Below are positions 3,246 through 48,825 of a DNA stretch of 64,000 bases, in pieces (positions within the stretch are counted from its first letter, which is position 1; each line of letters opens with the position of its first letter). A model generated the notes under the pieces. It did no database searches. It was given only the letters and a program-made list of their open reading frames with translations, and had not been told where the DNA came from. This DNA comes from Macrostomum lignano. Taxonomy: Eukaryota. The position numbers and the translations under genes were made by a program. The DNA lies in NCBI GenBank assembly GCA_002269645.1, contig NIVC01001186.1, positions 123,293-187,292 on the forward strand, in the 5' to 3' direction.

Positions 3246-4078
3246 CAGGGGTGTCGCCATGGATTTGATGGTGGGGGGACAATGCCGAAAATCCTGCATG
3301 TACACTATTTAAAAAATCGGTGTTGTCAGCGTCATTTTGGCACCGCAGGCACTCAATTTAGCGCCACAGGCACTCATTTTAGCGCCGCAGGCACTCATTT
3401 TAGCGCCGCAGACACTCATTTTAGCGCCGCAGACACTCATTTTAGCGCCGCAGACACTCATTTTGGCGCCGCAGACACTCATTTTGGCGCCGCAGACACT
3501 CATTTTAGCGCCGCAGGCACTCATTTTAGCGCCGCAGACACTCATTTTAGCGCCGCAGACACTCATTTTAGCGCCGCAGACACTCATTTTGGCGCCGCAG
3601 ACACTCATTTTGGCGCCGCAGACACTCATTTTGGCGCCACAGGCACTCATTTTGGTGCCGCAGGCACTCATTTTAGCGCCGCAGACACTCATTTTAGCGC
3701 CGCAGACACTCATTTTAGCGCCGCAGGCACTCATTTTGGCGCCACAGGCACTCATTTTGGCGCCGCAGACACTCATTTTAGCGCCGCAGACACTCATTTT
3801 AGCGCCGCAGACACTCATTTTAGCGCCGCAGACACTCATTTTAGCGCCGCAGGCACTCATTTTGGCGCCACAGGCACTCATTTTGGCGCCGCAGACACTC
3901 ATTTTAGCGCCGCAGACACTCATTTTTGCGCCGCAGACAAGCCCTCAAGCAAAATTATTGATTTCCACAACGGTTCACAAGGTTGGGGGGGACACAAAGC
4001 ATCGGCATGTTCCCCCATAGTTTTTTCTAGGGTCGGACATATCCCCCCTGTCCCCTACCTTCGGTGGCGACGCCCCTG
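3246..4078. mobile_element. MITE-like element with 14-bp TIRs (CAGGGGTGTCGCCA/TGGCGACGCCCCTG) carrying an internal 21-bp array
   Basis: Inverted termini seen; no clean TSD; a shorter, older relative without the array at ~35739-35853. Confidence 0.5.
3340..3935. repeat. 21-bp minisatellite (CACTCATTTTAGCGCCGCAGA)
   Basis: About 28 tandem units; produces spurious ORFs 3165-4097, 3309-3923 and 3337-4020. Confidence 0.97.
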
Positions 4079-7500: not shown

Positions 7501-9203
7501 GCACCGTGTCGCTGCCAGAGTTGCACACGCACTGAGCGGCGTTCACATAATGCCCATCAGTGTTGCCATTGTAGGCCAGCTCGGCAGACTGCACCGAAGT
7601 TAGCTGGGACGAAATTTTTGCCGGTAGAAACTTCGGCATCAGGACGGTTCGAGCTGAGCGTTGGGACGAGTTGTGTCGTTATAGAATTTATGACCTTCTA
7701 GACTAAAGTCTTGCAGAGCCGACAGCTCAGCCGCAGCCATTGCACGGCGGATCTGAAGGCTGCGTACGGCTGTTCAGTCCAAGGACTGGGGAGGAAGGGT
7801 CGCCACACACAGTCTCAATTACCCCAGCTAATGCTGGCACCCATTTTATAGCTGGTTGAACTGAAACAATGCAGATTTAAGCGTCTTGCTCAAGGACACA
7901 AGTTGTTCCCAGTGAGATTGAGAATCGAACCCCCGACTTTCGAGTCGTAAGGACTGACAATCAGAAAGTCAAGGGAGACTGTACATATGATAGCCAAGGA
8001 CCACTAGAAGAAGATGGACGGGACACTTCGTTTCTTGGAAAATTTATTAAAGGCTGATTTTCACGGAAAAATGCACTAGCGAGATAGGAACTTTTCACTT
8101 TTTCCACTTTAAAATGGTGATAGCTTTTTATTAGAAGCAGATACAAAGCTCTTCTTTTGATATAACTTACAAAACATGTTGCTTCGACGGATTTAATAAA
8201 GATTTTTTTCATGAATAATTGATCTTCATATTATTTTAGTTACTAGCTATATATCATGCAGCAATATAGTCTAAAGCTAACTAGTGACTAACTTGAATTT
8301 TACAATATCTGTTTAATCGAATGCATCTATTTATTAGCAATATATCATAAAAAACAGTTGGCTATAATTATATGCCCAATTCACTGCTTATTCATTATAG
8401 TTTTATACTTTTTATATAAAATAAGTGTATTTAAATATGTAGCTACCTTAGATATACTACTAGCTATGCCTAGACCTGGGCATATAATTATAGCCAACAG
8501 TTTTTTAATGATATATTGCTAATAAATAGATGCATTCGATTAAACAGATATTGTAAAATTCAAGTTAGTCACTAGTTAGCTTTAGACTATAATTGCTGCA
8601 TGATATAGCTAGCTAGTAACTAAAAGTCTAAAATAATATGAAGATCAATTATTCATGAAAAAATCTTGATAAAATCCGTCGAAGCAACATGTTTTGTAAG
8701 TTATATCAAAAGAAGAGCTTTGTATCTGCTTCTAATAAACAGCTATCACCATTTAAAAGTGAAAAAAGTGAAAAGTTCCTATCTCGCTAGTGCATTTTTC
8801 CGTGAAAATCAGCCTTTTAATAAATTTTCCAAGAAACGAAGTGTCCCGTCCTTTTTCTTTTAGTGTTCCTTGATGATAGCTCGTATATCAGTGGTAAGCC
8901 GCGAATGGGCATGACAGAGACTTTGGCCATAGACTACGCCTGTCTATGTCCATAGTTTCGTATTGATAGGCTGAGTCGCATTCTGAGTCTTCAATCATAG
9001 TCTATGGCCATGTTCTTATTAACACCGCTCGTGGGGGAGCGTATAAGGGGGAACCTCGTTTGGTTTGACAGTTAATTCTCATTTAGATCGTCAAAAGCGA
9101 TGCAACGACTAGATAGCTAGCTGTAAAAAATGATAAACTCACCGTCCAGACAGACGAAAGAAATATTTAACAAAGTAAACAGAAGCAGAACGAGTTTCTC
9201 CAT
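4577..9203 (-). CDS. Secreted F-type lectin (fucolectin) domain + PAN/apple domain protein, paralog 1; exons 9143-9203, 7396-7653, 6748-6966, 4577-4839 (266 aa)
   Basis: All introns GT-AG, all phase 1, open frame. Signal peptide MEKLVLLLFTLLNISFVCLD; FTLD motifs AELAYNGNTDG, PWWMLDL, VNVWNRLD, GRYL, FCEVDVY; PAN-like CLLRCSQMTNC...C; same exon structure in paralog 2. Confidence 0.85.
4972..5500 (+). mobile_element. Non-autonomous Tc1/mariner-type element with bipartite inverted repeats and an HTH remnant
   Basis: ~45-bp TIRs (TAGCATTTTGCAGTCAAGTTTGAACTGCGGGCATTCAAATTAGAC) flanked by TA; inner IR pair ~5098-5140/5353-5400; ORF MDNPIRRYARISREKRDLII...SVAEIANMLDVKRSSVY is a transposase N-terminal HTH. 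Confidence 0.75.
5758..6629 (+). mobile_element. Non-autonomous Crypton-related element with 23-bp TIRs and truncated recombinase N-terminus
   Basis: TIR TGTCCCATGACTGAGCGTGCGTT; ORF 5927-6217 (EELNRLFDSIPD...LEQETDVKSSKKHE) aligns by eye to the N-terminus of the 39909 recombinase (EELEKLFSSDPE...LERDNECHSTVSKE); internal 19/20-bp array contains CTGCACG. Confidence 0.55.
6285..6545. repeat. 19/20-bp minisatellite (CATTATCTGCACGCTTTTT[T])
   Basis: Tandem units. Confidence 0.92.
7095..7290. repeat. 15-bp minisatellite (CTGTAATCCTGAGAA), short degenerate array in lectin intron 2
   Basis: Same unit expanded at 42715-43335. Confidence 0.88.
7716..7955 (-). mobile_element. tRNA-derived SINE with CORE-like central domain (family 1)
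   Basis: Reverse-complement homolog of 12300-12560; B box GGTTCGATTC. Confidence 0.75.
7995..8872. mobile_element. Foldback MITE, nearly the whole element a palindrome, 8-bp TSD ATGATAGC, CAAGG...CCTTG termini (P- or hAT-like)
   Basis: TSD at 7987-7994 and 8873-8880; arms of ~400 bp. Confidence 0.85.
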
Positions 9204-12924: not shown

Positions 12925-13267
12925 TCTAGCCGGGTGTTTAATTGCTATAGCCGGGTGTTTAATTGCTATAGCCGGGTGTTTAATTGCTATATCCGGGTGT
13001 TTAATTGCTATAGCCGGGTGTTTAAATGCTATAGCCGGGTGTTTAATTGCTATAGCCGGGTGTTTAATTGCTATAGCCGGGTGTTTAATTGCTATATCCG
13101 GGTGTTTAATTGCTATAGCCGGGTGTTTAATTGCTATAGCCGGGTGTTTAATTGCTATAGCCGGGTGTTTAATTGCTATAGCCGGGTGTTTAATTGCTAT
13201 AGCCGGGTGTTTAATTGCTATAGCCGGGTGTTTAATTGCTATAGCCGGGTGTTTTATTGCTATAGCT
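12925..13267. repeat. 21-bp minisatellite (AGCCGGGTGTTTAATTGCTAT), left part of the array split by the Polinton
   Basis: Continues in the same orientation at 28047-28180. Confidence 0.95.
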
Positions 13268-13379
13268 AGTAGTAGTAGGGGAAATTGGGACTCTGTCGCA
13301 GGAATTTCCGTGGGAAAACCACGGGCCTATAGTGTGTAAACATAGCGCCTATGGAAATGCATTGGTGGACTCTGCCGCA

Positions 13380-14180
13380 GGGCATAAATACATTCTCACC
13401 TGCATTGATGTTTTGTCTAAATTTGCAATGGCCAGAGCACTGAAGTCTAAGAGCGCGGCAGAAGTAAAATCTGCGTTTGAGAGCATGCTGAAGAGCTCAA
13501 AGCGGCAGCCGCGCACTGTCCGCACAGATCAGGGTCTATGCAATTTTTTGCCAGTTCTGCATGGACCGGGAGATTCTGGCGTTTCCAACTAGCAGTGAGC
13601 AAAAAGCAGCCATCATTGAAAGATGGAACCGAACTTTAAAAAGCAAGATGTGGCGTTACTTTACTCACAACAGCACTCTACAATGGCTTGATGTGCTGCC
13701 TAAACTGGTCAAGTCCTATAACAATACTTTCCACAGAAGCATCAAGACTGCACCAATGAATGTTAGCAAAGCAAACGAGACTGAAGTGTGGATGAACCTT
13801 AATGATGGGAAAGCGATTGAGACAGTTGAGAAACTGAGAAAACCGAAGTTCTGTAAAAACCAATCAGTGCGGACTTCCAATGCACCCAGACTTTTCAGGA
13901 AGGGATACAAGGCGAACTGGAGCGAAGAGGTGTACACCATGCACCAAAGCATTATCCCTACATGTACAGGATTCGAGACATGAAGGGGGAAAACATTCGA
14001 GGCCTCTTCCACGAGCATGAGCTGCAAGCTGTTCCGGACTCACAGCGGCTGTATGTAATCGAGAAGGTTCTGAAGACTGAGAAGTGGAAGGGTAAGATCC
14101 GATATCTCGTCAAGTGGGCCGGCTACAACTCCACTGACTGGGTGGATGAGAAGGACTTAAGAAAAGTGCAAGATACCGAC
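13380..14180 (+). pseudogene. Polinton retroviral-like integrase with C-terminal chromodomain, 5'-truncated and frameshifted
   Basis: GHKYILTCIDVLSKFA, VRTDQG, AAIIERWNRTLKSKMWRYFT, YVIEKVLK...YLVKWAGY. Confidence 0.88.
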
Positions 14181-14199
14181 ATTGTGCAGCCATTCCCAA

Positions 14200-14947
14200 C
14201 TATGAGAGGCATCATCATTAGCAGTGAAAATGCCGAAGGTACTCCTAGTGACTTTCATTTTCACCTGCCTTCACCTATTTACTTGGATCAAAATGTGGAC
14301 TGAGGCAAGTCTGGCTGAAATCCATCTGCCTGCTGCATGGTTCAATGTTGACGAGCCTTACTGCTTCACTGTCTCAGATGGAAGAGAGCATGAGACCCTG
14401 GTTCTTCAACCCCGGACGCTTTGCTAGAGTGGAGGAACTGGTTGAGCGCATGAATGAGCTGATGGCCAACTCTGAGTCACTGTTCTTCGATGCAACGAGC
14501 GACAGGGAGTCTGAAATGGAAGCTGATGAGTCCGGTTTAATGGGGCGGAGCAGCACTAGAGATATTGGCATAAAGTTTGAAATCCAAGAGTTGAGAACGG
14601 TAGTGCTCAACAACACGGCTCGAGCAGAATTGCTCCTTCCATCAAGTAAAATTCTGCAGTGGCTGGGATTCGGAAACCAGCCTGTGAAGATCCCACCTGG
14701 ACGGCAAGTGTCACTCTGCTGCATCGGTTGTCCGCCCACCAACCTGATCAACTTGCACTGCAGCATTGTGGAGCGAACAAACTGCAACTGGAACTCCGTG
14801 TTGCGAACTGTGAGCATGTCATCCGATGTCGAATGGGGCAGCTACATGAGCAAAGTGTTTAAGAAAGCAATTTTCTTCCCAATTCAGAAAGCTAATTTCC
14901 ACATGGAATTAGATTTCAACTGTGTGACATCTTTGGCTACTCACTGA
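14200..14947 (+). pseudogene. Polinton minor capsid (penton)-like protein, frameshifted
   Basis: TPSDFHFHLPSPIYL..W EASLAEIHLPAAWFNV N-terminal motif and VLRTV...F..I C-terminal motif typical of Polinton mCP. Confidence 0.6.
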
Positions 14948-15005
14948 CTGCTCGGAGCAGCAGCCCTGTTCTGCTCACAGTTCATATTCGGGAAAGGCTA
15001 ATACA

Positions 15006-15495
15006 ATGAACTACCAACAGCTGATTCGTCAGTATTCAGGGAGTCTGGCAGGAAGCCAAAAGCCGGCGCTCTATGGCTGTGGGAGTTTTCCAGGAATCAT
15101 GACTTATCAGCCTCCTCCAGAAGCTTCCACACAGTCATTATCGCTATCAAAGCCAGCCCATACCACCACCAGCGGCAGCAGCAGTAGAAACAGCAGAAGC
15201 AATAGAAACTGACCAAAGCAGCGACTAGTCAAACAGGGTAGTAAGAAGCAGACAAAAAAGAAGAAAAAGAGTAAGACTGAGAAATCACCGAAAAGAAGCC
15301 AGTCAGGGCGAAATAAACCTAAGAAGGGAAGGTCTAAAACTCAAAGCAAGAAAACAGACAAAGGAAATAAAAAAGTGAGCAAAAAGACTGTGAAACGTGT
15401 ATTGGACTCGCTTTCATAGCAATGGCTTACGGATTCAACCCCAGACTCGATTTGTTCAAGTCCCCCGTGCTGCAGACTGCCATTGAAAAATTATT
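15006..15495 (+). pseudogene. Polinton small/basic ORF remnants, followed by the major capsid protein N-terminus (15421-15495, truncated)
   Basis: Lys-rich stretch, then MAYGFNPRLDLFKSPVLQTAIEK resembling the LDLF..P.TQT.IE start of Polinton MCP. Confidence 0.5.
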
Positions 15496-15499
15496 CTCC

Positions 15500-15630
15500 A
15501 GGTGATTTTTCATAAGGCGATTCTTCTCAAGGCGATTCTTCTCATGATAATTCTTCTCAATGTGATGCTTCTCAAGTTGATTCTTCTCAAGGGGATTTTT
15601 CTCAAGGTGATTCTTTTCAAGGCGATTCTC
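15500..15630. repeat. 15-bp degenerate minisatellite (GATTCTTCTCAAGGC) at the capsid breakpoint
   Basis: Direct reading. Confidence 0.8.
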
Positions 15631-16633
15631 ATTATTGACATTAATTTTCCTAAGTCTAATGACGTCACCGGACTTAAGTGTATGATAGCTCATCGTAAGG
15701 TTTGCTTTTCTGAACTAATTATAAGGTGTTTCGGCGTTGTGAACTTTCGGTCTAATGAAACCAAAACTCGAGTCAGCTTAGAATAAAATAAAGTCTTTGT
15801 GTCCAGTGCGCGAGCACTCGTGGACACGGCAGTATAAAGAATTTATGATAGCGCGAAAATTTAAATAGGAAAGAACGTGCAAAAGCTTAGCTGGTAAACA
15901 GAAAAACTCATGCAGGGTATTTAGTAAAATATAGTTTAACTACTACAAGTAGCAGTTGCTGGAGAAACTAGAAATCTAGGACGTTTCGAAACCAATAACT
16001 ACTTCATAATCTATAGATAATTGCAGCTTGTTAATTGGTTTCGAAGTGCTTTAACTTAACAGGTACTCGTAGTAGCTAACTGCAGGAATCTCAAGGATCG
16101 ATCGCTTTTGCACATCGGAACCCTGACCTGCTGAGGTTCAAGTCGAACAAGTCTCCACCTGCGACTACTAGGAGAAAGATTGCTAAGTACACAAGCCAGT
16201 GCGAGATCTATAGACGTTGCATTCAAGGCAGGAAAGATATCTAAAAGAGAGATCTGAAAAGTACATAGTACATAGTCGATTTTTTAAAACAAATTAAAAG
16301 GAAACTAAAAATGTGTAGTTTAAACAAAACATCTAAAAACTTTCGAGACTTTCAAAAAATACAAAATTTGAAATTCAAAAGAAAGATATTTCTTTTATGA
16401 TGACAAGGTCAGAATGACAAGAATGAAAATGCTATCATTTTTGGTCACAGAAACAGCGCAACGAAATCGAACTCGGCGCATTTTGCGCACAATTGATCAG
16501 AAGTGCCACGGCTTCTAGTCAAAAATCCATTAATGAAAGAAAATTATCTGCAAAAAGTAGAATATCTTCAACTTCGAAATCATACGAAATGTATCAGAAA
16601 GCTAAAATTCTGAATAAAATTCAATTAAAATCA

Positions 16634-18654
16634 TCATTCCACATCCGGAAAGTTGATGAAGTGCCGGCGAGGCCAACCAGATTTGCTGATCACCTGCGTC
16701 GCCTCAGTCTGAGAATTAAAGCTGCTCTGCTGCCGGTCCGACGAAGCGCGGCCGCTGAACAGCCGACTGCCGCCTGTGATCGGCAGGTAGCCGCCAATCA
16801 GGATTCGCTTCTGCTTACCCAACCACCTGCCCAGCATCCTGCTCAACAAACTCCTGATGCAGCTGTAGTCTCGCTCGATAATCTCGGCCACAGTCAGCAT
16901 GATCAAGTACCTGTTCTCTACCTCGTGCTCGATGACGTGGTTCACGGCCGAGGACAGAACTCCGACCACGAAGTTGATGAATAGGATGGGCACGAACAGG
17001 ACGTAGGTCACGTGGGTGATGAGGAGGTCGATTCGGTCGATCTCGGGCAGGTAGAGGCTGGTGTCGATAATGTTGAGGGACACCAGGAAGGTCGTGTAGA
17101 ATGCCTTTATGTAGCCACTTAGTGCGTTAGCATTTGTAGTTGAATTAGACACGAGAGACATGGGTTCGCTTCCGTGGAACATGCGCGCAAATATTGCCGT
17201 AATACAGAGGTAGAACGTGAAAAACATGAGAAAAGTTGTTAAACTACGATGAAAACTGCTCATTACGGCGGATATTGACGGCAGAAGGCGCATGAACCAG
17301 AAAAGCAGGCTTAGACTCATTAGAAGAAGAAGTCTTATGCCAGAACCTTGCACAGTGTAGACCGCCTGATTGAACAGAGCGCAGCTACTTCGAATGTCGA
17401 CGTGCAGCCAAAGGAGCAGCGCAGCAGTGGGCAGCGACACGGAGCATGGCAGCAGCCACGACAGCAGATCTCTGTAGCTCCTTCGGGGCCGCCTTGGGTA
17501 GCCGACCTTCCTTCTGTTTTTAAATTATTGATTTTCCATTACAAAGAATAAACAGTCATGTATGCACAATATAGCCTAACTTTGGTTACTAACCTAAACA
17601 TTTCCTTTCTTAGCAGACCTGCTGCTGCGAAGAGCAGAAAGAGCAAAGAGCTTGACAGGCATGTAGAAAGTACGAGAAGAAAGGATGCAGGATTCTCCAC
17701 CCCTTGCGATGACGCGCTAAAACAGTATTTAAAAAATAGGGCCTTCATACCCGGACCTGAAAAGATGGTGACGGACAGCAGTTGCAAGAAAATAAGACAA
17801 GCAATAACTATTATGATCCACCGGTTGCGGTCGTACAGCGCCTCGACCCAGCGCCTCCACAGGAAGCCGTTGCGGAACACGCCCGCCGCCTTCAGCTCCG
17901 CCAGGGTGGCCTGGCTGTACACGTCGAGCAGCACGCAGATCGGGCTGGTGAAGAATGCCGGGTTCTCGCCGAACCAGTCGGTCACATCGACGCTCACTCG
18001 CTCTCGAATGCCTACCGAGTCCGAGTGCACCTCGCTGCTGGCCAGGTGGTGCAGCATGATGTACTCGACATGACCGGCCAGTCCGAGAAACACGCCCCAG
18101 CTCATTGGCGTCATCCCTCGGCTGCTGACCTGCAGCATCTCGGCCTGCTGTTGTCTGGTGAACAGGCGGCGATGAAAGAGCTCGACGAGATCTCGGCCGG
18201 TACTGCCGCAGTCCGTCGGCTGCTCCGTGCGCTGCTCCGTCCCGGACATGAAGCTGACGGCGCTCAGCAGCATGTGGTAGGCCGTGAAGCCTCGCTCTCT
18301 GATCTTAGCAAAGTCCACCGTGTCCTTTCCGCTGTCCGAGGTCTCGTGCATGAGGCGCAGACACCACTGAGCGTTGTAGAACATGGCGACGAAGAACGGG
18401 TTGGTGGGGAACGGAATGTCGCTGTCGTCCTGCTCTGGATCGCCAGACCCGATCCAGTCGGCTTGGTTTCGAGCTCGAGCTCCTCGGTGGTCGGAGCTGG
18501 CGAGAAATGCGGCCCAGTCCGAGGGTCCGAGAGAGTCGCGGAACTCTTTGAGGTCGTCAGCGTTGTCGTCGGCGATGCAGCGGACGAACGCGAGCCAGTC
18601 GTCAGTGTCCGTCAGGAACTCCTTAGCATCCAATTGATCGGTTTCTTTTTCCAT
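16634..18654 (-). CDS. Divergent TRPV-like cation channel; exons 17594-18654 and 16634-17513, 80-nt intron (646 aa)
   Basis: GT-AG intron 17514-17593 joins the two ORFs in frame; degenerate ankyrin motifs (GFTAYH, GMTPMSWG); several TM helices; pore-like FYTTFLVSLNIID; S6/TRP-box-like ILFINFVVGVLSSAVNHV...IIERD. Confidence 0.75.
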
Positions 18655-20553
18655 TACTGAGCAAGATCGCAATTCTGCGCTGCTTTATCGCTTTTTTAAT
18701 GTGCCGTGAGTCTGGGAAATTCAGACCCGCTCGACATATTAATAGAGATTCAGCCGCATTTGGTACGCCAGTTTTCCAGACTTTCCAAAGTCAACAGCTG
18801 AATCGTTTTTATCTGATTAGAAAACGTGTGAACTGCCTAGCATTGGATTCTTTTTAACCAAACAAAAGGCTGTGCGTGTGCAAATTTACCCAGTGCCAAG
18901 CAAGTTCATCACTGTTTTCTCCCACATTAATTAATATCGTGACAATTTTTGGCGTTGTTTGCCATGCATTAATGCTATTTACTTGGAATTACAATTACCA
19001 ACAAGAACAAGTTACGAGCGTATTGTCTCGTTTCATGGTCTAATTTTATACGATTACAGACAAAATCACTTTGGGTGTTGTTAGGGAGGGGGGGGGAGGT
19101 GCGGACGCCTCAATCAATTCGATTTGACCTCTTTGTTAAGCGTGGTTGGTGCCCGATCTGGGAATGTTTCTGCTGTCTCCGGTGCTGGGTCACGCAGCCT
19201 GCTTGTAATCACCCTGAAGTCTCGCTAGCTATTTCGCGATGTGAAACCTTGTATGTATGTACGTTGTACGTTGATAATTTTAATTGTTGCCGCTTTGTCG
19301 TAGTGTCAAGGATGCTTAACCTTTGTAGATGTGAAACTTAGATATGTGGAATTTTGACGTGAAGTCGGATGCTTTTTAATTGCGACACAAAATTAAGCCG
19401 TTACACATGTGCATATACCTATTGTTACGACAAAGTGATCTTCACTAGCTACTACGCTCTCGAGCATAGCGGACGAACGTATGTTTGCGTCAGACTGACG
19501 TTGGAACCTGAGCGGGTGAATCGCGTAGCCTAACTCGTTCAGTCCGCGTCATATGAGTCCCTGTTACCGTACACACTCGTTTTACGGTTCCAAAAGGAAA
19601 TAGTGCAAAACGGAAACTCACTTTTACTCGGCCTTGCGTGTCATATGTGGGTGACTTTAGCGTCGTTGGCTATTATTGAATGTATACTTTCGGATCTAAA
19701 GTTTTTTATCAGACTGTTCTAAAGGTCTTATCGGTGAAGCCAATAGGCGCCCTCTCTCTCGCTCATCACATCATTATTTTTATATAAATACATGTATACA
19801 ATTACTACTTAGTCTTTTAGGGTCAGGGATTCGGCAATAGAGCAGCCGTGAAACTTATAATTGGCTAGGAAACGTGAAAACATGACAAGGCACGGGGCTT
19901 ATGGGAAAAAAATTGGGTTGCACACAGAAGGGCAGCCAATCAGAGTTGGGTACGGAGCGGGCCGGGGTAGAAAGAATGGGGAGGGGGCAGGCAGCTAGGC
20001 TGGGGGGTTGATGCAAACCCCTCTGGGGGGGGGTTGGTGCAAACACGTGGGCCGATGCGGTATGTGAGCGATATGTCGGGCACACTTGTCGAAAACTAGA
20101 GATTGCTCATCAGTACTAATGTACCCGAGCACAATACTAATTAAGATGTTTATGTTATGCTGTTTTTAACGATAATGTGCGTTAATCTTTGAAGAAGCTG
20201 CTGCCAAGCCAGATTTTCCTGCCGACTATTTAATTGAAACGGCTACTGGACATTCCCCTCCAGCGTTCCCCCTCGGTGGTGTTTCCTCTGCGTCTCTAAA
20301 ATGAAAAATGAAATGGGCAGCGGCACAAGAAAGAACTTTAGTGGCATTACTAGCAATCAGCGCCCCCCGTTGGGGAGCCAAAAAAATGCAGTACAAGTTT
20401 TTTTTAATAAACTACATGTAAGCGTCTCTTTGCATTGTACATTGTAAGCCTTGACATGTCAGAAAATCCCCCCACAAGCCTTAGCATATCAACCCCCTTG
20501 ACATCTTAGCAATGCCCCATAAGCCTTGAAATCCTAAAAAATCTGTCAACCTT

Positions 20554-20603
20554 CTAACCCTAACCCTAGCCCTAACCCTAAACCTAACCCTAACCCTAAC
20601 CCT
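20554..20603. repeat. Short interstitial (CCCTAA)n telomere-like tract
   Basis: About 8 units with variants. Confidence 0.85.
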
Positions 20604-21466
20604 CAGCCAGAATCATTTTCTGCTTTGATCTGCAAACTATAAGCTTCTGCAAATGCCTGCTTTTTCACAATGGCTCATTCGTTCCCAGTGGCGCAAAAAC
20701 AATGAGCATGCTAATTTCCGACTTTTCCTTGCTTGTCCGTTTTCTGTGCTAATAATAATAACCATATTTTTCTATAATTAAATAAAAGGACGACAGATGA
20801 ACAAAAATTTAATAATTTTGCATGCATATGCCACGTATTAAGATGCGTGCATTTTAATCAATATACCTGAACTTCGATCGACTTTTTCTTTATTTTCATA
20901 ACTGAAATCGCAATATTAGTTTGAGTATAGAAAATTGAATCCGACCACCACCAACTCAAGAAAAAAAGCACACCTATCGCTCAGATTATGCACTGCTAAG
21001 ACAAATAAAAACGAAAAAGAACAAGCAGAAATGAAAATGGAAGCAAATATTTATCTGATAATCATTGGATAATGGTTACAAAAATATGAGTAGCAAAGCT
21101 AGCAAAGATTAAAAAGGACAGTAACTCAATTCATTCAATTGCTCAAAAATTCAAGGATAATAAAAAAGGGGAAGCCAGACCAATATGCCGCAAATTATTC
21201 CAACATGGCTTTCACAAGTTCGCATTGAAATAAATCTGGAGCAACTCAACCCGAAAATGTTACATTTAGTTAGTTGCTTAGAGACTACAAATATGTAACT
21301 AACTGAATTGGCTCTATTCGTTCCAGCATTGTCATTATCATCATCCTTCATCATCCATCATCATCATCATCATTCAGATTAATTAAACCACAGAAACAAT
21401 TCATGGAGTACATAAGTAAGAAGTCAATAAATTTCAAGTGCAAAAGTTACACAGATGTGCAAAGCA

Positions 21467-22349
21467 TCACTCTAAGCAGTCCGCTGTCCTTTTCGGACTA
21501 CCCCTGATTGACAGCTGAAAGTGGCCGAACGGAAGACTTGAGTTCGGGCCAATCCATGCTCGCTTGTCCTCCCAGATACTGAGAGCGTTGCTCAATGGTG
21601 AAAACGCGATGTTTCTCACTTCCAATTCGACGAACAGTGAGCGACAGCTTTGAAGCCCCCTTGAAAATCTTGACATAGCACGCTTCGTTGGATGCATTTT
21701 GCTTTTGCTTTGCATGCCGCCGAGCTTTCAGCGAGGAAAGAATAGAGCTTGGGCCTTAGCAGCACCCACTCAATCTGTTGCAGTCCACCAGCTTCATCTT
21801 TAATGCAGCCTAGCTTGGCCTTTAGCCGATTCGAGAAGAGAGGATGATTAGTGAAAAAATTGGAGGTGTCCAAGCAGCACTTCTCTCTGCAAACTAAGGT
21901 TCTCTAAGCTAAAAAACAACGAGTCTGTATCGCCACCGAAAACTCGAACTCTCGCTCCATCACGGAATTCTAGCATGAGTTTTATTTTGTCATAGTAAAG
22001 TCGATACATGATGATCTTGGAGCGATCTAGAACACACTGCCCCATGAAGATTTGGGCGATCAAGAGTTACTTCGTGCTTTTGAAGCTCAAAGATGCTGAG
22101 TGACGGCGTAATGATTGTGAATGATGCGACATTTGGTTGTGAAGAAACAGTCTTGGCTTTTTTCTTGTCACTGCACACTCTGATGTCCCGCCGCTTGCGC
22201 ACGTTCTCCATTGTTTTGCCAAACGGGGAGTTATTTTTCAGTTTATAGAAATCCTTCTCGAAATCACTTTTCGCCATAGAGCGGATCAGAGCTTGAGAAT
22301 GCCAACAATTTGAAAGTTGCTCATAAAATATAAAACTAGGCCATTTCAT
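21467..22349 (-). pseudogene. Polinton protein-primed family B DNA polymerase, C-terminal half, frameshifted
   Basis: KLKNNSPFGKTMENVRKR, GDTDSLF, LDTSNF, KLGCIKDE, LRPKLYSF, EDKR...LPFGH. Confidence 0.9.
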
Positions 22350-23529
22350 TTAAAAATCATTAGGTCTGATTCTGTTATATGATTTATCAGATTCATAGCT
22401 TATATTTCATACAATTTGCAAACTAAAAAATCTAACTCACTGTTGGTCCCAGGTTCGAAACTGAAATCGGCAGACTCCAGCAGCGAGCCCTGGTCCTGTT
22501 GAGTTCCGACCCGAATCCACCATTAGCAGCAGTCAGTTCGATGGACCGGACAGCTCAAATCTTTTCGATTTTGTGGAAATCAGATGCTGGAATTTAGTTA
22601 CAGATGCTAGCAATTATTCTATAGGGATCAGCATAGCGGTCTGTCAACGTATAATCCATAGACTCAAGACTATTGAAGCATCAACTCAAAATAAAACCAA
22701 AAGCTCCTGATCAAAAGCAATCAACCCTATCTTTTGTCCAAATATTAATCCAAATTCACGCAGAAAAGGATTAAAAGTCAAAACCAGTCATGCACATTCC
22801 GTAGCATTCAAAGCCATCATGCTCATATTATTTTATTTCGAATTAAATATTTGCAAAATTAATGAAAGCAAATAGAAGCACTAAAAACTTTAAACAAAAT
22901 TTGCCGGGTACATTATTGAAAATATGAGGCACAGAGCGACGAGCATTTATTTTATAGCTTTAAAAAATTATTGGGTTCCGGATAGCTGATAAACACATTA
23001 ACAGTAGAGCATAGTACGGCCCTATAAGATAACAGCCGAAAAACCACAATTGTCATTTAGATAGTATGTACCCCACTTCTCACCTCTTTAATGCAGGAGA
23101 ACATAATCCCTGTAATGAGAGATCGCATTAGCTAATTCGAAACTGTAATTGTGCTTTCGAAAATTTGTTTCCAAGCTACAACTGAACAATATCCATTTTT
23201 GACTTTGTAAGCCACTTATATTGTAAACAATAGATATCGTATAGTCTTTCGGCTGTTAATCTCTGCACATTAATCACTACAAACTATATAAATTACACAT
23301 TAAAGAATTACACATTTTTTGATGATTAACCAAACCTTTTTTAGCGATAAATGAATGCAAAATTATGAGTTGCTCAGTCGGATTCGAAAGTTACCCTGGA
23401 AAGTTGAATAGACATACAAATTGGGCTGCACTCCAGAAGAAGCAGTCTCAGCCGCACCCGTTGATGCTCCTGCCATTGCTTCCGCTTCCATAGTTGGCGG
23501 TTGAGCAGGGCCAGATTCGAGCTCGCGGA

Positions 23530-23700
23530 GAATGTCAGAAATGATCGGCGGGGAGCAACAGCGGCGGCAGGCAGCTCAGCGGTGATCGGCGGGGGAGCAG
23601 CAGCGGCGGCAGGCAGCTCAGCGGTGATCGGCGGGGGGGCAGCAGCAGCGGCAGGCAGCTCAGCGGTGATCGGCGGGGGAGCAGCAGCGGCGGCAGACAG
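23530..23700. repeat. 36-bp GC-rich repeat, ~4 units, within open frames of unknown function
   Basis: ORFs 23374-23823 (-) and 23501-23872 (+) show 12-aa repeats. Confidence 0.75.
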
Positions 23701-24829
23701 CGCAGCGGTGACCATCATCGATGGCCAACCACATACACTCGAGATAACCTGGCTCAGTGAGCTCTCAGGTTCTCGGATTCGCTCAGCAGCCCTGCGCCCC
23801 TCTTCCTGCTCTGCCACCTCCAAAGCGATGATGCGGGCTTGCTCCGAGCCTCAGCCGAGCTCCAATTTATGACGATGTGACCTCCATGTCTTTTTGATTG
23901 GCCTCTAGCAGTAAAAATTTCGATGGATTTACATTCGTAGCAGATCAGCCAGCGTGTGATGTTGCAGGTCTCACGAGCAGTGTGCTCATACGGTTTGAAC
24001 CCACCGAGTCGGCTTATATTGCATGTAGTGCAAACCTCATGCACATAGGATGGGCAACGTGTCCTGCTCATTATTGTTTTTTAATAGAACTCGAACGAGT
24101 ATTGATTAAACACAATCAGACTTAAATGGGGCAAGTAGAAAGTTTTTCAGTCCTTATATCCGAATCACCAGGCGATTCGCCCTATATGCACACACACAGA
24201 TATGTTTACACGTTACATATGTGTATACACTAATTATTTTCTTACCGTTATTGAACAACAGTAATAAAACTGATAACATTCCCCAGTCCCCAGTCATATC
24301 AGCTAGTTTTAAAGACCACCACCCCACTTCCCCGCCGCCAAGTCAGCAGTATCAATAAAAACAATAACAAGGCAATAAGCTTTGCAAGCTCACTTTCACA
24401 AAAATTTTGTCCAATTCAAGTTATTCATTTACTAAGATCCATTTAGTTCATTTAGTTCATTTACTAGAGTGCGGAGGAACTCATCACCAAACAGTACACA
24501 CAGTCACCATCTAAGAAGCCTCTCTTTGAATTGTTTATATAAATTCAGAATTGCTTAACATTTCCTTCAGGACTCATTTTATATGTAGCGAAATTGCAAC
24601 AATTTTCCTATTTTGTTTCAGTAGAATGCTCATATAGTAGCACATACAAATGTTCACAGAACTCTTGCTGAGATGAAAGGCAAATGAGATGGAAGTGAAA
24701 GTTTACAAACTTTAGGAAAACATATTTTCAAAACATTTTTTGGTCGGCTCAATACAATGCAGTTTATTTTGAGTCCAGAGTCCATGCCATGCATCAAAAC
24801 ATCGGCTATGCCCCCCCCCCCCCTAATTT

Positions 24830-25030
24830 CCGTGGCATTCCCCGCGGCAGAGTTCTCCCATGCAAACACATAGGCCTATGTACTCTCACTTGGCCCTATG
24901 GAATTTCCATGGCTTTCCCTGCGGCAGAGTCCACCAATGCATTTACATAGGCGCTATGTTTACACACTATAGGACGTTGGTTTTCCCACGGAAATTCCTG
25001 CGGCAGAGTCCACATTTCCTATACTACTAC
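24830..25030 (-). repeat. Internal copy of the Polinton terminal inverted repeat
   Basis: Reverse complement matches 13268-13382 over ~110 bp; repeated GGACTCTGCCGCAGG subunits. Confidence 0.85.
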
Positions 25031-25040
25031 AGCTAGTTTT

Positions 25041-25312
25041 ACCGAACGGAAGACTTGAGTTCGGGCCAATCCATGCTCGCTTGTCCTCCCAGATACTGAG
25101 AGCGAGCTTACGTTGCTCAATGGTGAAAACGCGATGTTTCTCACTTCCAATTCGACGAACAGTGAGCGACAGCTTTGAAGCCCCCTTGAAGATCTTGACA
25201 TAGTCGTCGTGGGAGACTTCGTATGTTTCGTTCTTCAGCACGCTTCGTTGGATGCCTTTTGCTTTGCATGCCGCCGAGCTTTCAGCGAGGAAAGAATAGA
25301 GCTTGGGCCTTA
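25041..25312 (-). pseudogene. Second, shorter PolB C-terminal fragment
   Basis: LRPKLYSFLAESSAACKAKGIQRSVLKNETYEVSHDDY...LPFG; retains a segment deleted in the 21.6 kb copy. Confidence 0.88.
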
Positions 25313-25317
25313 GCGCT

Positions 25318-28016
25318 GAGAATTGATTTGAGAAATGTTGAGAAACCCAATATTGAGAAATATTGAGAAACCCAATATTGAGAAATATTGAGAAACCCAA
25401 TATTGAGAAATATTGAGAAACCCAATATTGAGAAATATTGAGAAACCCAATATTGAGAAATGTTGAGAAACCCAATATTGAGAAATATTGAGAAACCCAA
25501 TATTGAGAAATGTTGAGAAACCCAATATTGAGAAATGTTGAGAAACCCAATATTGAGAAATGTTGAGAAACCCAATATTGAGAAATGTTGAGAAACCCAA
25601 TATTGAGAAATGTTGAGAAACCCAATATTGAGAAATATTGAGAAACCCAATATTGAGAAATGTTGAGAAACCCAATATTGAGAAATATTGAGAAACCCAA
25701 TATTGAGAAATGTTGAGAAACCCAATATTGAGAAATGTTGAGAAACCCAATATTGAGAAATGTTGAGAAACCCAATATTGAGAAATGTTGAGAAACCCAA
25801 TATTGAGAAATGTTGAGAAATATTGAGAAACCCAATATTGAGAAATGTTGAGAAATATTGAGAAACCCAATATTGAGAAATGTTGAGAAACCCAATATTG
25901 AGAAATGTTGAGAAACCCAATATTGAGAAATGTTGAGAAACCCAATATTGAGAAATGTTGAGAAACCCAATATTGAGAAATGTTGAGAAACCCAATATTG
26001 AGAAATGTTGAGAAATATTGAGAAACCCAATATTGAGAAATGTTGAGAAACCCAATATTGAGAAATGTTGAGAAACCCAATATTGAGAAATGTTGAGAAA
26101 CCCAATATTGAGAAATGTTGAGAAACCCAATATTGAGAAATGTTGAGAAATATTGAGAAACCCAATATTGAGAAATGTTGAGAAATATTGAGAAACCCAA
26201 TATTGAGAAATGTTGAGAAACCCAATATTGAGAAATGTTGAGAAACCCAATATTGAGAAATGTTGAGAAACCCAATATTGAGAAATGTTGAGAAATATTG
26301 AGAAACCCAATATTGAGAAATGTTGAGAAATATTGAGAAACCCAATATTGAGAAATGTTGAGAAATATTGAGAAACCCAATATTGAGAAATGTTGAGAAA
26401 CCCAATATTGAGAAATGTTGAGAAACCCAATATTGAGAAATGTTGAGAAACCCAATATTGAGAAATATTGAGAAACCCAATATTGAGAAATGTTGAGAAA
26501 CCCAATATTGAGAAATGTTGAGAAACCCAATATTGAGAAATGTTGAGAAACCCAATATTGAGAAATGTTGAGAAACCCAATATTGAGAAATGTTGAGAAA
26601 CCCAATATTGAGAAATGTTGAGAAACCCAATATTGAGAAATGTTGAGAAACCCAATATTGAGAAATGTTGAGAAATATTGAGAAACCCAATATTGAGAAA
26701 TGTTGAGAAACCCAATATTGAGAAATGTTGAGAAACCCAATATTGAGAAATGTTGAGAAACCCAATATTGAGAAATGTTGAGAAATATTGAGAAACCCAA
26801 TATTGAGAAATGTTGAGAAATATTGAGAAACCCAATATTGAGAAATGTTGAGAAACCCAATATTGAGAAATGTTGAGAAACCCAATATTGAGAAATGTTG
26901 AGAAACCCAATATTGAGAAATGTTGAGAAACCCAATATTGAGAAATGTTGAGAAACCCAATATTGAGAAATGTTGAGAAATATTGAGAAACCCAATATTG
27001 AGAAATGTTGAGAAACCCAATATTGAGAAATGTTGAGAAACCCAATATTGAGAAATGTTGAGAAACCCAATATTGAGAAATGTTGAGAAACCCAATATTG
27101 AGAAATGTTGAGAAATATTGAGAAACCCAATATTGAGAAATGTTGAGAAATATTGAGAAACCCAATATTGAGAAATGTTGAGAAACCCAATATTGAGAAA
27201 TGTTGAGAAATATTGAGAAACCCAATATTGAGAAATGTTGAGAAATATTGAGAAACCCAATATTGAGAAATGTTGAGAAATATTGAGAAACCCAATATTG
27301 AGAAATGTTGAGAAACCCAATATTGAGAAATGTTGAGAAACCCAATATTGAGAAATGTTGAGAAACCCAATATTGAGAAATGTTGAGAAACCCAATATTG
27401 AGAAATGTTGAGAAACCCAATATTGAGAAATATTGAGAAACCCAATATTGAGAAATGTTGAGAAACCCAATATTGAGAAATGTTGAGAAACCCAATATTG
27501 AGAAATGTTGAGAAACCCAATATTGAGAAATGTTGAGAAACCCAATATTGAGAAATGTTGAGAAACCCAATATTGAGAAATGTTGAGAAACCCAATATTG
27601 AGAAATGTTGAGAAACCCAATATTGAGAAATGTTGAGAAACCCAATATTGAGAAATATTGAGAAACCCAATATTGAGAAATGTTGAGAAACCCAATATTG
27701 AGAAATGTTGAGAAACCCAATATTGAGAAATGTTGAGAAACCCAATATTGAGAAATATTGAGAAACCCAATATTGAGAAATGTTGAGAAACCCAATATTG
27801 AGAAATGTTGAGAAACCCAATATTGAGAAATATTGAGAAACCCAATATTGAGAAATGTTGAGAAACCCAATATTGAGAAATATTGAGAAACCCAATATTG
27901 AGAAATGTTGAGAAACCCAATATTGAGAAATATTGAGAAACCCAATATTGAGAAATGTTGAGAAACCCAATATTGAGAAATATTGAGAAACCCAATATTG
28001 AGAAATATTGAGAAAA
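25318..28016. repeat. 2.7-kb satellite of 15-mer GAGAAACCCAATATT and 10-mer GAGAAAT[G/A]TT (25-bp basic unit)
   Basis: Direct reading; source of the 887-1023 aa spurious ORFs. Confidence 0.98.
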
Positions 28017-28046
28017 TTGTATTGAGTCCACATTTCCCCTACTACT

Positions 28047-28180
28047 GTAGCTGAGTGTTTATTTGCTATAGCTTGGTGTTTAATTGCTATAGCTTGGTGT
28101 TTAATTGCTATAGCTTGGTGTTTAATTGCTATAGCTTGGTGTTTAATTGCTATAGCCGGATGTTTAATCGCTAGCCGGAT
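28047..28180. repeat. 21-bp minisatellite (AGCTTGGTGTTTAATTGCTAT), right part of the split array
   Basis: Same orientation and unit family as 12925-13267. Confidence 0.9.
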
Positions 28181-28660: not shown

Positions 28661-30818
28661 ATGAGCTCAAACGCTAATGACGATGTAAGTTAGTAACTCA
28701 AGTTTTGTGTAAAAATCGTGTAAAAATTGGAGATGACGTCATATATGGACTATTTGTTTGCTAGTGACAACTGTCACTGGCAGTCAATTGTTACTGACAG
28801 TCAAATGTCACTGGCAGTCAATTGTCACTGACAGTCAATTGTCACTGGCAGTCAAATGTCACTGGCAGTCAAATGTCACTGACAGTCAAATGTCACTGAC
28901 AGTCAAATGTCACTGACAGTCAAATGTCACTGACAGTCAATTGTCATTGGTAGTAAAATTTAAACCCTATAAGCTTTCCCTAAACTTCAAGACATTTGAC
29001 AGAAGAGTTGATTAATATTTCGTTTTTTAGTTGACGACAATTTCAACCCTACAGGCCGACATCACCACGGAGCGTCAGCACCTGCTATCAAAATCAGAGG
29101 TGCAGCCGACAACGATGGAAATCTCTATGGTGTTCAAGCTGAAGTGCTTCATCTATGCGATGTTGCTGATTGCCCTAGGCTTTGTAACTACTATTGTTGA
29201 AACGCAGGACTTCTTAGAGGACGTCGAAAAAACTGATACAAGCGATCGAGCTGCCAGAACTCGAGGCATCATTAAATGGATTTGCTTTGGTATTAATTGC
29301 GCCTACCTGCTTCCCGCCATAGCTGGACTTCTGTACCTGCAGAGGTGGGCCATAGTGCAAGGCAAACTGCCTCTAGTTGCATTGCAGGTGTGCGACCATG
29401 GGTCTCAATCAGACTTGTTGCAACAAAAAGCAGGAGTTTTGCTTCTGAAGAGCGTTAATCGATATGTCTACCTGCCAAGGAGGCTGAACAGCTCGCCATC
29501 CATGCTCATAATCTTAACGTCACTATTATTCGCGCTATTCTCTTGCTTGTCCATCATATTCGAAATGGCATGCGGAGTTATTGCGTCAATTAAAAGTGCA
29601 GAATTTTTACCTGACGTATTCGGATGCATGATTTTGCTAATTTTTATTATAACTCAGGCGAGGTTTTCTATTCTATACGGCAGGGTTAGCTTCCAATGGA
29701 AGCTGCGCGTAGCCTGCTTAGTTTTTGCCCACGTCATTGCCACAAACATTTCCGCCTGGTTCTTCAGTGTTGGCTTCGAATTGAGTGAAATAATTTCCAA
29801 TGAAACTGCCCACGGGGAGTTTGCTGGCTCCTATTGTACAATGTTTCCAATCATTCGAAGTCTCTATCCGTTCTTAACTGAGTACTACGTGATGAGCGCG
29901 CTCATCGTATTCGGATTTTCGGCCAATGTTGGAAAACTCGGCGTTGCGATTAAAGAAGCTGCAGCTGGAGGAATTCGAATTAGTACCGAGAGCATCCGGG
30001 ATCTGCTGACAAAATCGGGCTCACCGCGCACAGGACACACTTGGCGTGCTGAGCGCTCTATGATGAGGCGGTACTCCAGTCGAATTTCCGTTGGCGTCGG
30101 CTTACTGCTCATCACGCTAGCTGCCGCTATTTTTCTCAGATATCAAAGCACAGACAAGATATACCCGCAGGTAGTGTTCTACTGCATCCTGATCCTGCTA
30201 TACTCGAGCGGTATGGCCTGCAACTGTCTGCTACTAGGAGCAATTAGTACGAGTAGAACTAGCTGTCAAAGGTTTAGCAGTATTCACGGCACTGATCGGA
30301 TTCTACTGTGGCTAGGCGCTCTAGCGATCGCAGTGAACAATATCTACACCATCGGGATGAGTGTTGCTCAAATTTTACGGGAGTATAATGTCTCGTATAA
30401 ATTACCTGGATTGATCCTAAGCGCGGTCTGTTCTTGTATTAATATCGGTCAGAGCTTGCTGCAAGTGTTTACTCTGGAGTGCACTTTGCTCTGCAGGTTC
30501 AGCTCCGGCAAGAATCAATACGGTCAGGCTATGTTGACAGTTCTCATGATAGTAAATGCTGCCCAGTGGCTCGACAACACAATCTGCTTTAGTTTCTTCT
30601 TTCCTAAAAATCAGCTAAACGATGCTCGAGTTCTTTCTCTTCTAACTGTACCCCTGCAGGTGTTTTTCCGTTTCCACTCGATTGCCTGCATGCACGACAT
30701 TAAGAAGCATTGTAACGATTTGCACGCGGCCCATTCAGACAATCATTCGGCACAAGTGGCCGAACAAGCTGTTGAGCGTCTCAATGAAGAACCAATAGAC
30801 TTTCCTGACGACAGCTAG
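28661..30818 (+). CDS. Otopetrin-family proton channel; probable exons 28661-28684 and 29031-30818 (~603 aa)
   Basis: FAHVIATNISAW, SLYPFLTEY, QSLLQVF and FFRFHS motifs; many TM segments. Micro first exon inferred from ATG...GAT|GTAAGT and TTTTAG|TTG, both phase 0. Confidence 0.82.
28770..28950. repeat. 17-bp minisatellite (AAATGTCACTGACAGTC) in the otopetrin intron
   Basis: Direct reading. Confidence 0.9.
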
Positions 30819-35702: not shown

Positions 35703-36441
35703 TATTAGGAGTCGACTCGATAATCTCTTGCATGCTTACAGAGGCGTCACAAGGTGGGGTGGGGGAGACAAAGCATTGACATGTTTCTTATAGCTTTTGC
35801 TTCATCTGGGGGAGGGACATATCCCCCAGACCCCCCTCGGTGGCGACGCCTCAGCTCGCTTAATAACTACAATACATGTAGATAGTTTTTACGGATATTG
35901 TGCGGTAACGTTCTTTGTGGTATTTTAAAAGTTGTACACCATTTTACCCTCGATTTTGAACAAGGAGAACTTCGAAACTGACAAACTCCTCTTCAATATT
36001 GACACTCTATGGTGGGGCACTCAAAATCAACAATCAATATTGACAGACAAGCTTCATTTTTGACAAACTCTGGTTCAATTTTGACAATGCACGTTTAGTC
36101 AACTTCTCCTGGGAGAATTCGGTAACAAAGTAATCCACTGAAAGCCTGAACGGGGCTGAAGTGAGCTGTGCAATATCAGCTTATTCTGATTTTGCTTTTT
36201 GGATCTACAAGTATTGATAAAATTTATTTTTCTTCATCCTTTACACACACAGACTAAAATAGCCTGACTGGTTGGGCTGCAAAGTCTGATTCTATTTTGA
36301 CAGAGTTGCTTCAAAACTGACACTCTATGGTTTGTGTACCCAAAAAGTCCGCTTCATTTTTGACAACTCCGAATCAATATTGAACAGTTAACAATCGATT
36401 TTGACTAAGACATTTTTTGAAATAGATTTTGACAATTTTTA

Positions 36442-36656
36442 CACCTTTTCACGTTCAATTTTGATCAAAGTCCAGTTCTAAAAAAACTAGCGGAAATTCA
36501 ATTCAGACTGAGGATAATTTTGTCTATGGCTAAACCTTACTTCGGTTAGAATGTTTTGAGCTGGGGTTAGACTGGGCCCCAGTCTAAATTGTCTGAATTG
36601 AATTTCCGCTAGTTTTTTAGAACTGGACTTTGATCAAAATTAAACGTGAAAAGGTG
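36442..36656. mobile_element. Palindromic MITE (CACCTTTTCACG...CGTGAAAAGGTG) nested in the left arm, TA TSD
   Basis: Absent from the right arm at the equivalent TA. Confidence 0.85.
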
Positions 36657-36679
36657 TACTAAGATTTCTCTCTTGAGGG

Positions 36680-37350
36680 GGGGGGGTACTTGCTATTTGG
36701 GAGAGGGGGTACTTGCTATTTGGGAGAGGGGGTACTTGCTATTTGGGAGAGGGGGTACTTGCTATTTGGGAGAGGGGGTACTGGCTGCATGTATCTACGA
36801 GTACATGTATGGGAATCTTTCTATCCAGGGATGCTTGCTATCTGGGTGTATGTTTGCTACCTGGATGATGCTTGCTATCTGCAAGATGCTTGCTATCTGG
36901 GTGGATGTTTGCTACCTGGATGATGCTTGCTATCTGCAAGATGCTTAATTTGCTTTCTAGGGGATGCTTGCTATCTGCAAGATGCTTGCTATCTGGGGGA
37001 TGCTTGCTATCTGCAAGATGCTTGCTATCTGGGGGATGCTTGCTATCAGGGGTATGCTTGCTATCTGGGTGGATGCTTGCTATCTGGGGGATGCTTGCTA
37101 TCTGCAGGATGCTTGCTATCTGGGGTATGCTTGCTATCTGGGTGGATGCTTGCTATCTGGGGGATGCTTGCTATCTGCAGGATGCTTGCTATCTGGGGGA
37201 TGCTTGCTATCTGCAGGATGCTTGCTATCTGGGTGTATGCTTGCTATCTGGGTGGATGCTTGCTATCTGGGTGTATGCTTGCTATCTGGGTGTATGCTTG
37301 CTATCTGGATGGATGCTTGCTATCTGGGTGGATGCTTGCTATCTTGGGAT
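36680..37350. repeat. 23-bp (TACTTGCTATTTGGGAGAGGGGG) and 18-20-bp (GATGCTTGCTATCTG..) arrays
   Basis: Direct reading. Confidence 0.93.
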
Positions 37351-38225
37351 GTTAAATGACCGGTCTTTTGCTAGAGTCCCTTGAGAGAGCAGGGACTCTA
37401 GCAAGCATCCCTGAATAGAAAGATTCCCATACATGTACTCGTAGATACATGCAGCCAGTACCCCCTCTCCCAAGTAGCAAGTACCCCCCCCCCTCAAGAG
37501 AGAAATCTTAGTAAAAATTGTCAAAATCTATTTCAAAAAATGTCTTAGTCAAAATCGATTGTTAACTGTTCAATATTGATTCGGAGTTGTCAAAAATGAA
37601 GCGGACTTTTTGGGTACACAAACCATAGAGTGTCAGTTTTGAAGCAACTCTGTCAAAATAGAATCAGACTTTGCAGCCCAACCAGTCAGGCTATTTTAGT
37701 CTGTGTGTGTAAAGGATAGAGAAAAATAAATTTTATCAATACTTGTAGATCCAAAAAGCAAAATCAGAATAAGCTGATATTGCACAGCTCACTTCAGCCC
37801 CGTTCAGGCTTTCAGTGGATTACTTTGTTACCGAATTCTCCCAGGAGAAGTTGACTAAACGTGCATTGTCAAAATTGAACCAGAGTTTGTCAAAAATGAA
37901 GCTTGTCTGTCAATATTGATTGTTGATTTTGAGTGCCCCACCATAGAGTGTCAATATTGAAGAGGAGTTTGTCAGTTTCGAAGTTCTCCTTGTTCAAAAT
38001 CGAGGGTAAAATTGTGTAAAACAATATATATATAGAGATATTAAAACTTTATTGCATTAAGATAGCAACAGATTAGCAACAGATTAGCAACAGATTAGCA
38101 ACAGATTAGTAACACATTAGCAACAGATTATGTGATTGTTATTTGAACTCAATTATTATAAATTTTGTTAGTCCTCCGGTGCTACTCATCTCGTCTCACA
38201 CTTATAGCCAAGACTGGCAGGCTTC

Positions 38226-48653: not shown

Positions 48654-48825
48654 CATACATGCGCAAATTTGGGAATCACCCGGCCGTTTCTATTGGCAAC
48701 ACACACATGTAAGTCGCTATTGGCTGAGAGCAGTCACGTGACTACTATTCCGTCCAATAGCGACTTACATGTGTGTGTTGCCAATAGAAACGGCCGAGTG
48801 AATCCCAAGGTTGCGCCCAAGCATG
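48654..48825. mobile_element. 172-bp palindromic MITE inserted near the transposase stop codon, 8-bp TSD GTGCTCCT
   Basis: TSD at 48646-48653 and 48826-48833; CAT...ATG ends; partial relative at ~53105-53185. Confidence 0.85.

Follow-up and report, generated by a model that had tools for sequence, protein, structure and literature searches.

The stretch of DNA analysed here (the window) is a 64,000-nucleotide part of contig C1186 (positions 123293-187292) of the flatworm Macrostomum lignano. It contains the broken shell of a Polinton/Maverick transposon, and inside that shell lies an intron-containing gene for a TRPV-like ion channel, referred to below with its surrounding DNA as the cargo. 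The M. lignano genome is reported to consist mostly of three paralogous copies that differ by about 2.2% (PMC10733133); two sister contigs, C3676 and C1426, carry the same loaded Polinton between the same flanks as the window, and several channel paralogs also occur as triplets in the genome. The unit is likely the product of a single gene relocation into a Polinton rather than an element that spreads channel genes. Positions given without a contig are those of the window, and C-numbers denote contigs.

The shell belongs to a well-populated Polinton family. Its left arm (13380-15491) shares 94-96% identity with over 20 copies of the family and 82% with others (best 40 of 244 candidates), so the resemblance is not due to chance. 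Each genome search in this study scored 40 candidates, out of 244 (left arm), 208, 1506 and 1380, so copy counts are lower bounds throughout. A family map built from a 16.5-kb copy on C1545 and three other copies, each broken differently, gives the gene order PC4, integrase, presumed minor capsid, major capsid, protease, packaging ATPase, TATA-binding protein (TBP) and PolB. In family copies, Pfam identifies the PC4 gene, the integrase (rve, E 2.6e-16) and PolB (DNA_pol_B_2, E 6.8e-9), the latter two surviving in the window as fragments. The protease match lies just under its cut-off (Peptidase_C5, E 3e-4), and the ATPase is a P-loop open reading frame (ORF) with weak NTPase matches only. The major capsid protein has double jelly-roll neighbours (PF21738, score 0.97) at a recognition value under the threshold of the tool, and no Pfam or PDB sequence match; the ORF at 14202-15006, likewise without a Pfam match, is presumably the minor capsid gene, going by the gene order we expect of Polintons. 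The initial annotation, made from the sequence of the window, had placed integrase and the start of the capsid gene on the left and PolB on the right, and all were found at those places, with rve and chromodomain in the integrase and PolB on the minus strand. In the window copy the integrase, the presumed minor capsid gene and PolB carry frameshifts or stops, and family bases 113-1472 (the PC4 gene and the integrase N-terminus) are missing.

The cargo interrupts the major capsid gene. In the window, capsid codons 1-23 stand on the left side of the cargo; codons 23-427 are found on its right side in C3676, with the protease and the ATPase behind them. The left part in the window stops at family base 3603, and the C3676 capsid resumes at base 3600; the target GAAAAA^TCCAC is intact on both sides, giving an insertion at A^T with an overlap of at most 4 bases and no loss of target DNA. 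Microhomology explains the overlap: the Polinton shares AT with the unit of the donor satellite and AAA with a tract inside the Helitron. Because the capsid gene resumes in C3676 at the same A^T point, the cargo was inserted into this gene; the idea that it simply replaced the DNA from capsid to TBP is ruled out by the same contig. The initial annotation estimated the DNA between the viral genes at about 6 kb. The channel gene does lie there, but the inserted block (15490-20604) measures 5.1 kb, consisting of 4.86 kb of donor-like DNA and ending in the 3' end of a Helitron. The donor-like part (15490-20351) matches a tandem TRPV cluster on C1332 and C890 at 96.5-96.8%, and these two contigs are syntenic to one another and to a decayed third copy on C621. 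In the 50 kb compared at each donor (C1332, C890) there is no match to the family Polinton, and neither donor has a Helitron at the corresponding point.

The Helitron stub at the right end of the block comes from an abundant family (2196 candidates), in which the 3' end is a hairpin and CTAG followed by T at 20 of 20 loci. Long copies, chosen for length among 18 others, extend over 2.4-6.2 kb and start with TC in 11 of 11 cases, the start being preceded by A in five, by the CTAG of another copy in two and by other letters in four. By eye, TTTAG stands 6-10 bases away from the 3' junction at many insertion sites of the family (without a control count), and several copies stand head-to-tail with related Helitrons. 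The right end of the inserted block is internal to the Helitron and has no TC start, and its left end has neither CTRR nor a stable hairpin; the cargo as a whole lacks the TC start and the CTRR behind a hairpin that mark a Helitron-transduced unit. The sister contig C3676 keeps about 690 bp of the same Helitron, interrupted by a likely solo long terminal repeat, and the three loaded copies have since diverged by different changes. In the window and C1426 the DNA between the Helitron tract and family base 8062-8064 was later deleted, other parts of the unit are missing from C3676, and C1426 has acquired a tandemly duplicated right side as well as a 31.8-kb Helitron. That Helitron (C1426:226105-257870) lies in the cargo downstream of the gene, with a TC start after A and a CTAG end before T, and two ORFs in it are, judging by their motifs, putative Helitron Rep/helicase genes. 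Protease and ATPase had been reported missing, and they are indeed absent from the window; both are present in C3676, where they follow the capsid gene, and in C1426, and were lost from the window through the later deletion.

The loaded unit occupies one site. A DNA search with the gene found five full copies at at least 97% identity, namely the three loaded copies and the two donors. The left and right flanks were found only on the three loaded contigs, all of them filled (best 40 candidates each), and a 24-mer across the cargo/Helitron junction occurs exactly three times, always at the loaded locus. Genome searches with the gene, the flanks and the junction found no loaded copy with other flanks. 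The search for loaded units in different surroundings that the initial annotation had proposed thus returned three contigs with the same flanks only, and its suggestion of a non-autonomous Polinton spreading channel genes found no second site, with three of three loaded copies sharing their flanks. Among the scored copies, the 30 other family members that reach the insertion point all run straight through it (30/30). A single insertion is indicated by these uninterrupted copies and by the failure of the searches to find a copy with other flanks. Between sister copies the divergence of cargo, arm and left flank is 1.2-3.3%, close to the 2.2% reported for the three paralogous parts of the genome (PMC10733133); the cargo differs from the donors by 1.8-3.3%, the arm differs from the family by 2.7-3.4%, and the left arms of the family differ among themselves by 0-0.7%. 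These distances indicate that capture likely occurred once, shortly before the subgenomes parted; the spread of the three loaded contigs, 1-3%, is as expected for three subgenomes. Given its distance from the young family, the loaded copy took no part in the recent burst of that family.

The element lies within a 21-bp minisatellite, which continues in the same orientation on both sides (12927-13266 and 28048-28173) of inverted arms at 13271-13293 and 28024-28046 (Table 1). The inverted termini described in the initial annotation do split the minisatellite, but the terminus shared by the family begins at 13271; neither sister locus has the AGT that stands at 13268-13270 in the window. Family termini begin AGTAGTAGGGG, and the terminal inverted repeats (TIRs) start AG(T). 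The 6-bp target-site duplication (TSD) is perfect in family copies on C106 and C84; the near-duplication noted earlier in the window (ATAGCT/GTAGCT, one mismatch) is a perfect ATAGCT/ATAGCT in C3676. The right end is double: after a TIR running to 25028 come ACAGCT and AGT, then a second occurrence of a PolB piece, filler and, at 28046, a TIR end of 23 nt. The right terminus had been placed at 28046, where the 23-nt repeat exists, but the main right TIR (24864-25028) had been overlooked. After the inner right TIR comes a sequence that matches the present target site at five of six letters, as would fit a rearrangement in place, and we infer that the double end formed in place through the collapse of a tandem copy. 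A 25-bp satellite has grown from the filler in the window and at one C1426 end only. This 2.7-kb satellite (25328-28015) goes back to some 25 bases of filler at the junction, which stay unexpanded in sister copies, and thus represents a dated satellite birth.

Table 1. Features of the loaded Polinton and its borders in the window.
Feature	Position	Strand	Remarks
Left half of 21-bp minisatellite	12927-13267	+	Ends in target copy ATAGCT (13262-13267)
Left TIR remnant, 112 bp	13271-13382	+	Family bases 113-1472 deleted behind it
Integrase remnant	13380-14168	+	Family protein residues 86-355, three frame-shifted pieces, chromodomain last
Frameshifted family ORF, minor capsid by position only	14202-15006	+	No Pfam match
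Short basic family ORF, one stop	15006-15416	+	
Major capsid gene, codons 1-23	15422-15490	+	Cut by cargo
Cargo left end in 15-bp satellite (longer at donor)	15490-15629	.	AT microhomology with Polinton
TRPV-like gene, exon 2 (later transmembrane helices, pore, TRP-like helix)	16634-17513	-	
Predicted GT-AG intron, 80 nt	17514-17593	-	Same length in five close copies
TRPV-like gene, exon 1 (degenerate ankyrin-like domain, linker, first transmembrane helices)	17594-18654	-	
Upstream donor DNA, likely promoter	18655-20348	-	About 95% identical to C890, C1332
Non-autonomous Helitron 3' stub	20350-20604	-	Hairpin and CTAG end toward gene, telomere-like tract
Polinton DNA resumed past later deletion	20605-22283	.	
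Family TBP gene, last 37 codons	20639-20749	+	
Broken PolB 3' part	21470-22283	-	
Right arm	22284-24863	.	1.4 kb matched only by C1426 among loci compared
Right-arm stretch, 71% to family right part	23729-24416		
Main right TIR, 165 bp	24864-25028	-	Then ACAGCT (near-copy of target site), AGT
Second copy of PolB 3' piece	25042-25314	-	Likely remnant of collapsed tandem copy
Filler expanded into 2.7-kb 25-bp satellite	25315-28023	.	Unexpanded in C3676 and first right end of C1426
Outer 23-nt TIR end	28024-28046	-	
Target copy GTAGCT (ATAGCT in C3676) and right minisatellite half	28047-28173	+	

The channel gene is open, as the initial annotation had it. Removal of the predicted GT-AG intron (17593-17514) yields a protein of 646 amino acids, with an exon break that matches that of the paralogs, and all three loaded copies are open (646, 646 and 648 amino acids). 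Positions such as 17206 and 18446-18460 distinguish these three from the two donors. With a profile of the channel family, the best 60 PDB rows are all TRPV (E to 5e-20). The model of a paralog, P0002 (40-43% identical; predicted local distance difference test 83), reaches template-modelling scores of 0.5-0.58 to TRPV versus 0.32-0.34 to TRPA1, and the full-length paralog model matches TRPV1/3/5/6 and Nanchung-Inactive. Modelled alone, exon 1 of the window gives weak matches (best E 0.03, to TRPV4 and ankyrin proteins); PDB searches with the single channel sequence gave no match, and Pfam found no ankyrin repeats in the window protein. The protein is predicted to have the TRPV fold, with an ankyrin domain, a linker, a six-helix channel and a TRP helix. 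It belongs to a lineage-specific TRPV-like expansion of 51 genome matches, which are divergent, often in tandem, and have one conserved intron or none. Among named proteins, the nearest ones come from M. lignano itself (40% for the channel, 99% for one Polinton-family protein). Searches that covered subscription journals poorly found no paper on a TRPV expansion or on Polintons in M. lignano, and the search on Polintons in this species returned work on a Tc1/mariner family.

Comparison of the copies suggests purifying selection on the moved gene. Its pN/pS (ratio of nonsynonymous to synonymous polymorphism) is 0.21, which is below 1 (p=6e-5). Dead Polinton frames, compared across sister copies, have 0.39, which does not differ significantly from the value of the moved gene (p=0.17, with gapped codons and codons with multiple changes dropped). 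Between the window and C3676 there are 0 indels in 1938 coding bases versus 8 in 1984 non-coding bases (Poisson 4e-4), the latter a count that homopolymer errors may inflate. Retention of the frame was rejected as proof of selection: the capsid remainder of C3676 is likewise open over 405 codons. Three presumed RNA runs cover the exons and also the Polinton arm, with letters of the donor or other copies, and are neutral on expression; none of the three contains the spliced joint of the predicted intron.

Several features accompany these main subjects. The parent family encodes a divergent TBP (L070:2470-3030, C3901; PF00352, E 4.5e-22), of which the window keeps a remnant; its best PDB matches are archaeal TBPs, and five close relatives only were found. 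TBP is named in a figure legend of PMC8502044 for the related MELD viruses, and a literature search on TBP in animal Polintons found no paper. Next to the Polinton lies an open 595-residue otopetrin frame (29031-30818; PF03189, E 1.5e-10) that is partly duplicated in C1426. Elsewhere in the window there are palindromic or inverted-repeat elements at 7995-8872 (about 880 bp), 35931-38022 (512-bp arms) and 48661-48816 (156 bp), and many further minisatellites.

The arrangement is probably the outcome of one insertion into a resident element. The initial annotation had offered a later insertion into a dead Polinton as one of two alternatives; the insertion is supported because the cargo splits the capsid gene once and the donor cluster has no Polinton DNA, although this does not extend to the Polinton having been dead at capture. 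With break repair added as the mechanism, the account is somewhat better than an even bet. The Polinton would already have resided in the 21-bp minisatellite, and a donor allele of the TRPV cluster, itself since lost, would have borne a Helitron 1.7 kb upstream of its channel gene. Breakage within the capsid gene would have been repaired by copying this allele, with copying begun and ended inside repeats (the 15-bp satellite and the telomere-like tract of the Helitron) at microhomologies of 2-3 bp, likely before the genome split into three subgenomes. Repair is suggested because both block ends lie in repeats on microhomology and neither is a transposon end; the argument draws on the general behaviour of break repair and on Helitrons starting at their 5' end. 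What resulted is likely one more ordinary channel gene that brought along its own upstream DNA; the shell around it would no longer move unaided.

Several points weigh against this account. The natural 3' end of the Helitron faces the gene at an A^T site without duplication, which is the arrangement of read-through, and 5'-shortened copies are common in this Helitron family (6 of 18 other copies). Neither the donor loci nor the junction search yielded a Helitron-bearing donor allele. No empty site was found in the assembly (best 40 candidates per flank), so the order of Polinton first and cargo second is presumed, and the counts, from 40 scored candidates per search, are lower bounds. The dating is rough because right-flank distances (0.2-6%) reach 6% and disagree between stretches. 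The main rival, possible but doubtful, builds on the first of these points: a Helitron would have passed its 3' terminator, as in a model described in PMC4289320, and taken the gene into the capsid gene of the resident Polinton, its 5' part being lost afterward. The exact 3' end (hairpin, CTAG) borders on the cargo, and the gene follows downstream on that strand; the family is abundant, and one of its members, 31.8 kb long, was later inserted into this cargo in C1426. However, the right junction has no TC 5' end, and a later deletion would have had to stop within about 3 bp of the original junction; the new 3' end has neither CTRR nor a hairpin, and microhomology is present at both ends.

It is unlikely that the Polinton took up the gene elsewhere and then made one trans-mobilised jump here as a non-autonomous carrier. 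In C3676 the loaded unit has both its TIR ends and lies between perfect copies of a 6-bp TSD, the young family burst (left arms 0-0.7% apart) could have supplied the proteins, and nematode Mavericks move host cargo (10.1101/2022.07.12.499685). Yet there is one site and no source copy was found, the loaded copy lies 2.7-3.4% from the young family and outside its burst, and the cargo destroys the capsid gene, whereas nematode cargo lies between TIR and integrase. Slightly less likely still is the same move in trans with the Helitron as the loader of the gene. If that were true, the locus would be a record of the uptake of an intron-bearing gene by Mavericks, with the donor and both junctions kept, and a working channel gene would have been relocated by a Maverick outside nematodes. 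An assembly chimera, or two independent Polinton insertions on either side of a native TRPV locus, is very improbable: no independent read or contig spans the junctions among the matches listed, but the cargo/Helitron junction is common to three contigs that lie 1-3% apart and differ in later changes, the split falls at one point of one capsid gene, and the native locus lies elsewhere among other neighbours.

The locus is a well-preserved DNA-level duplication of a gene into a transposon, for which the donor, the insertion point and three sister copies are all available. It adds one likely working member to the large flatworm TRPV-like expansion. Its bearing on how Mavericks acquire host cargo is modest and would be greater if a second site or a transfer between species were found.

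The parent family resembles Polinton/Maverick elements of the adintovirus-like type (PMC8502044): its TIRs start with AGT, it makes a 6-bp TSD, and its copies encode integrase, PolB, protease, ATPase and a putative jelly-roll-like capsid protein. In contrast to those elements, the window copy is a deleted and frameshifted relic, and the family adds PC4 and a divergent TBP. The predicted channel is closest to TRPV1-6 and Nanchung/Inactive, which fit both the family profile and the predicted fold best; it departs from known TRPV proteins in its identity of about 12% in structure alignments, in the lack of a Pfam ankyrin match in the window protein and in its lineage-specific expansion. Helitron end features and the read-through and filler-DNA models of capture are set out in PMC4289320. 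As in Helitron capture, a 3' hairpin and CTAG stand beside the moved gene at an A^T site without TSD; unlike the captures treated there, the moved block has no TC start and no new CTRR end. The initial annotation held that host-gene cargo is not a standard feature of Polintons, a view that is outdated: nematode Mavericks are reported to carry intron-containing host cargo, a wasp protease or krma kinase (10.1101/2022.07.12.499685). As in those Mavericks, an intron-containing host gene lies between Polinton TIRs in Macrostomum. In the nematode elements, however, the cargo lies in the stretch from left TIR to integrase, the core genes are kept, many elements are loaded and the cargo crosses species, whereas the Macrostomum cargo breaks the capsid gene, occupies one site and has its donor in the same genome.

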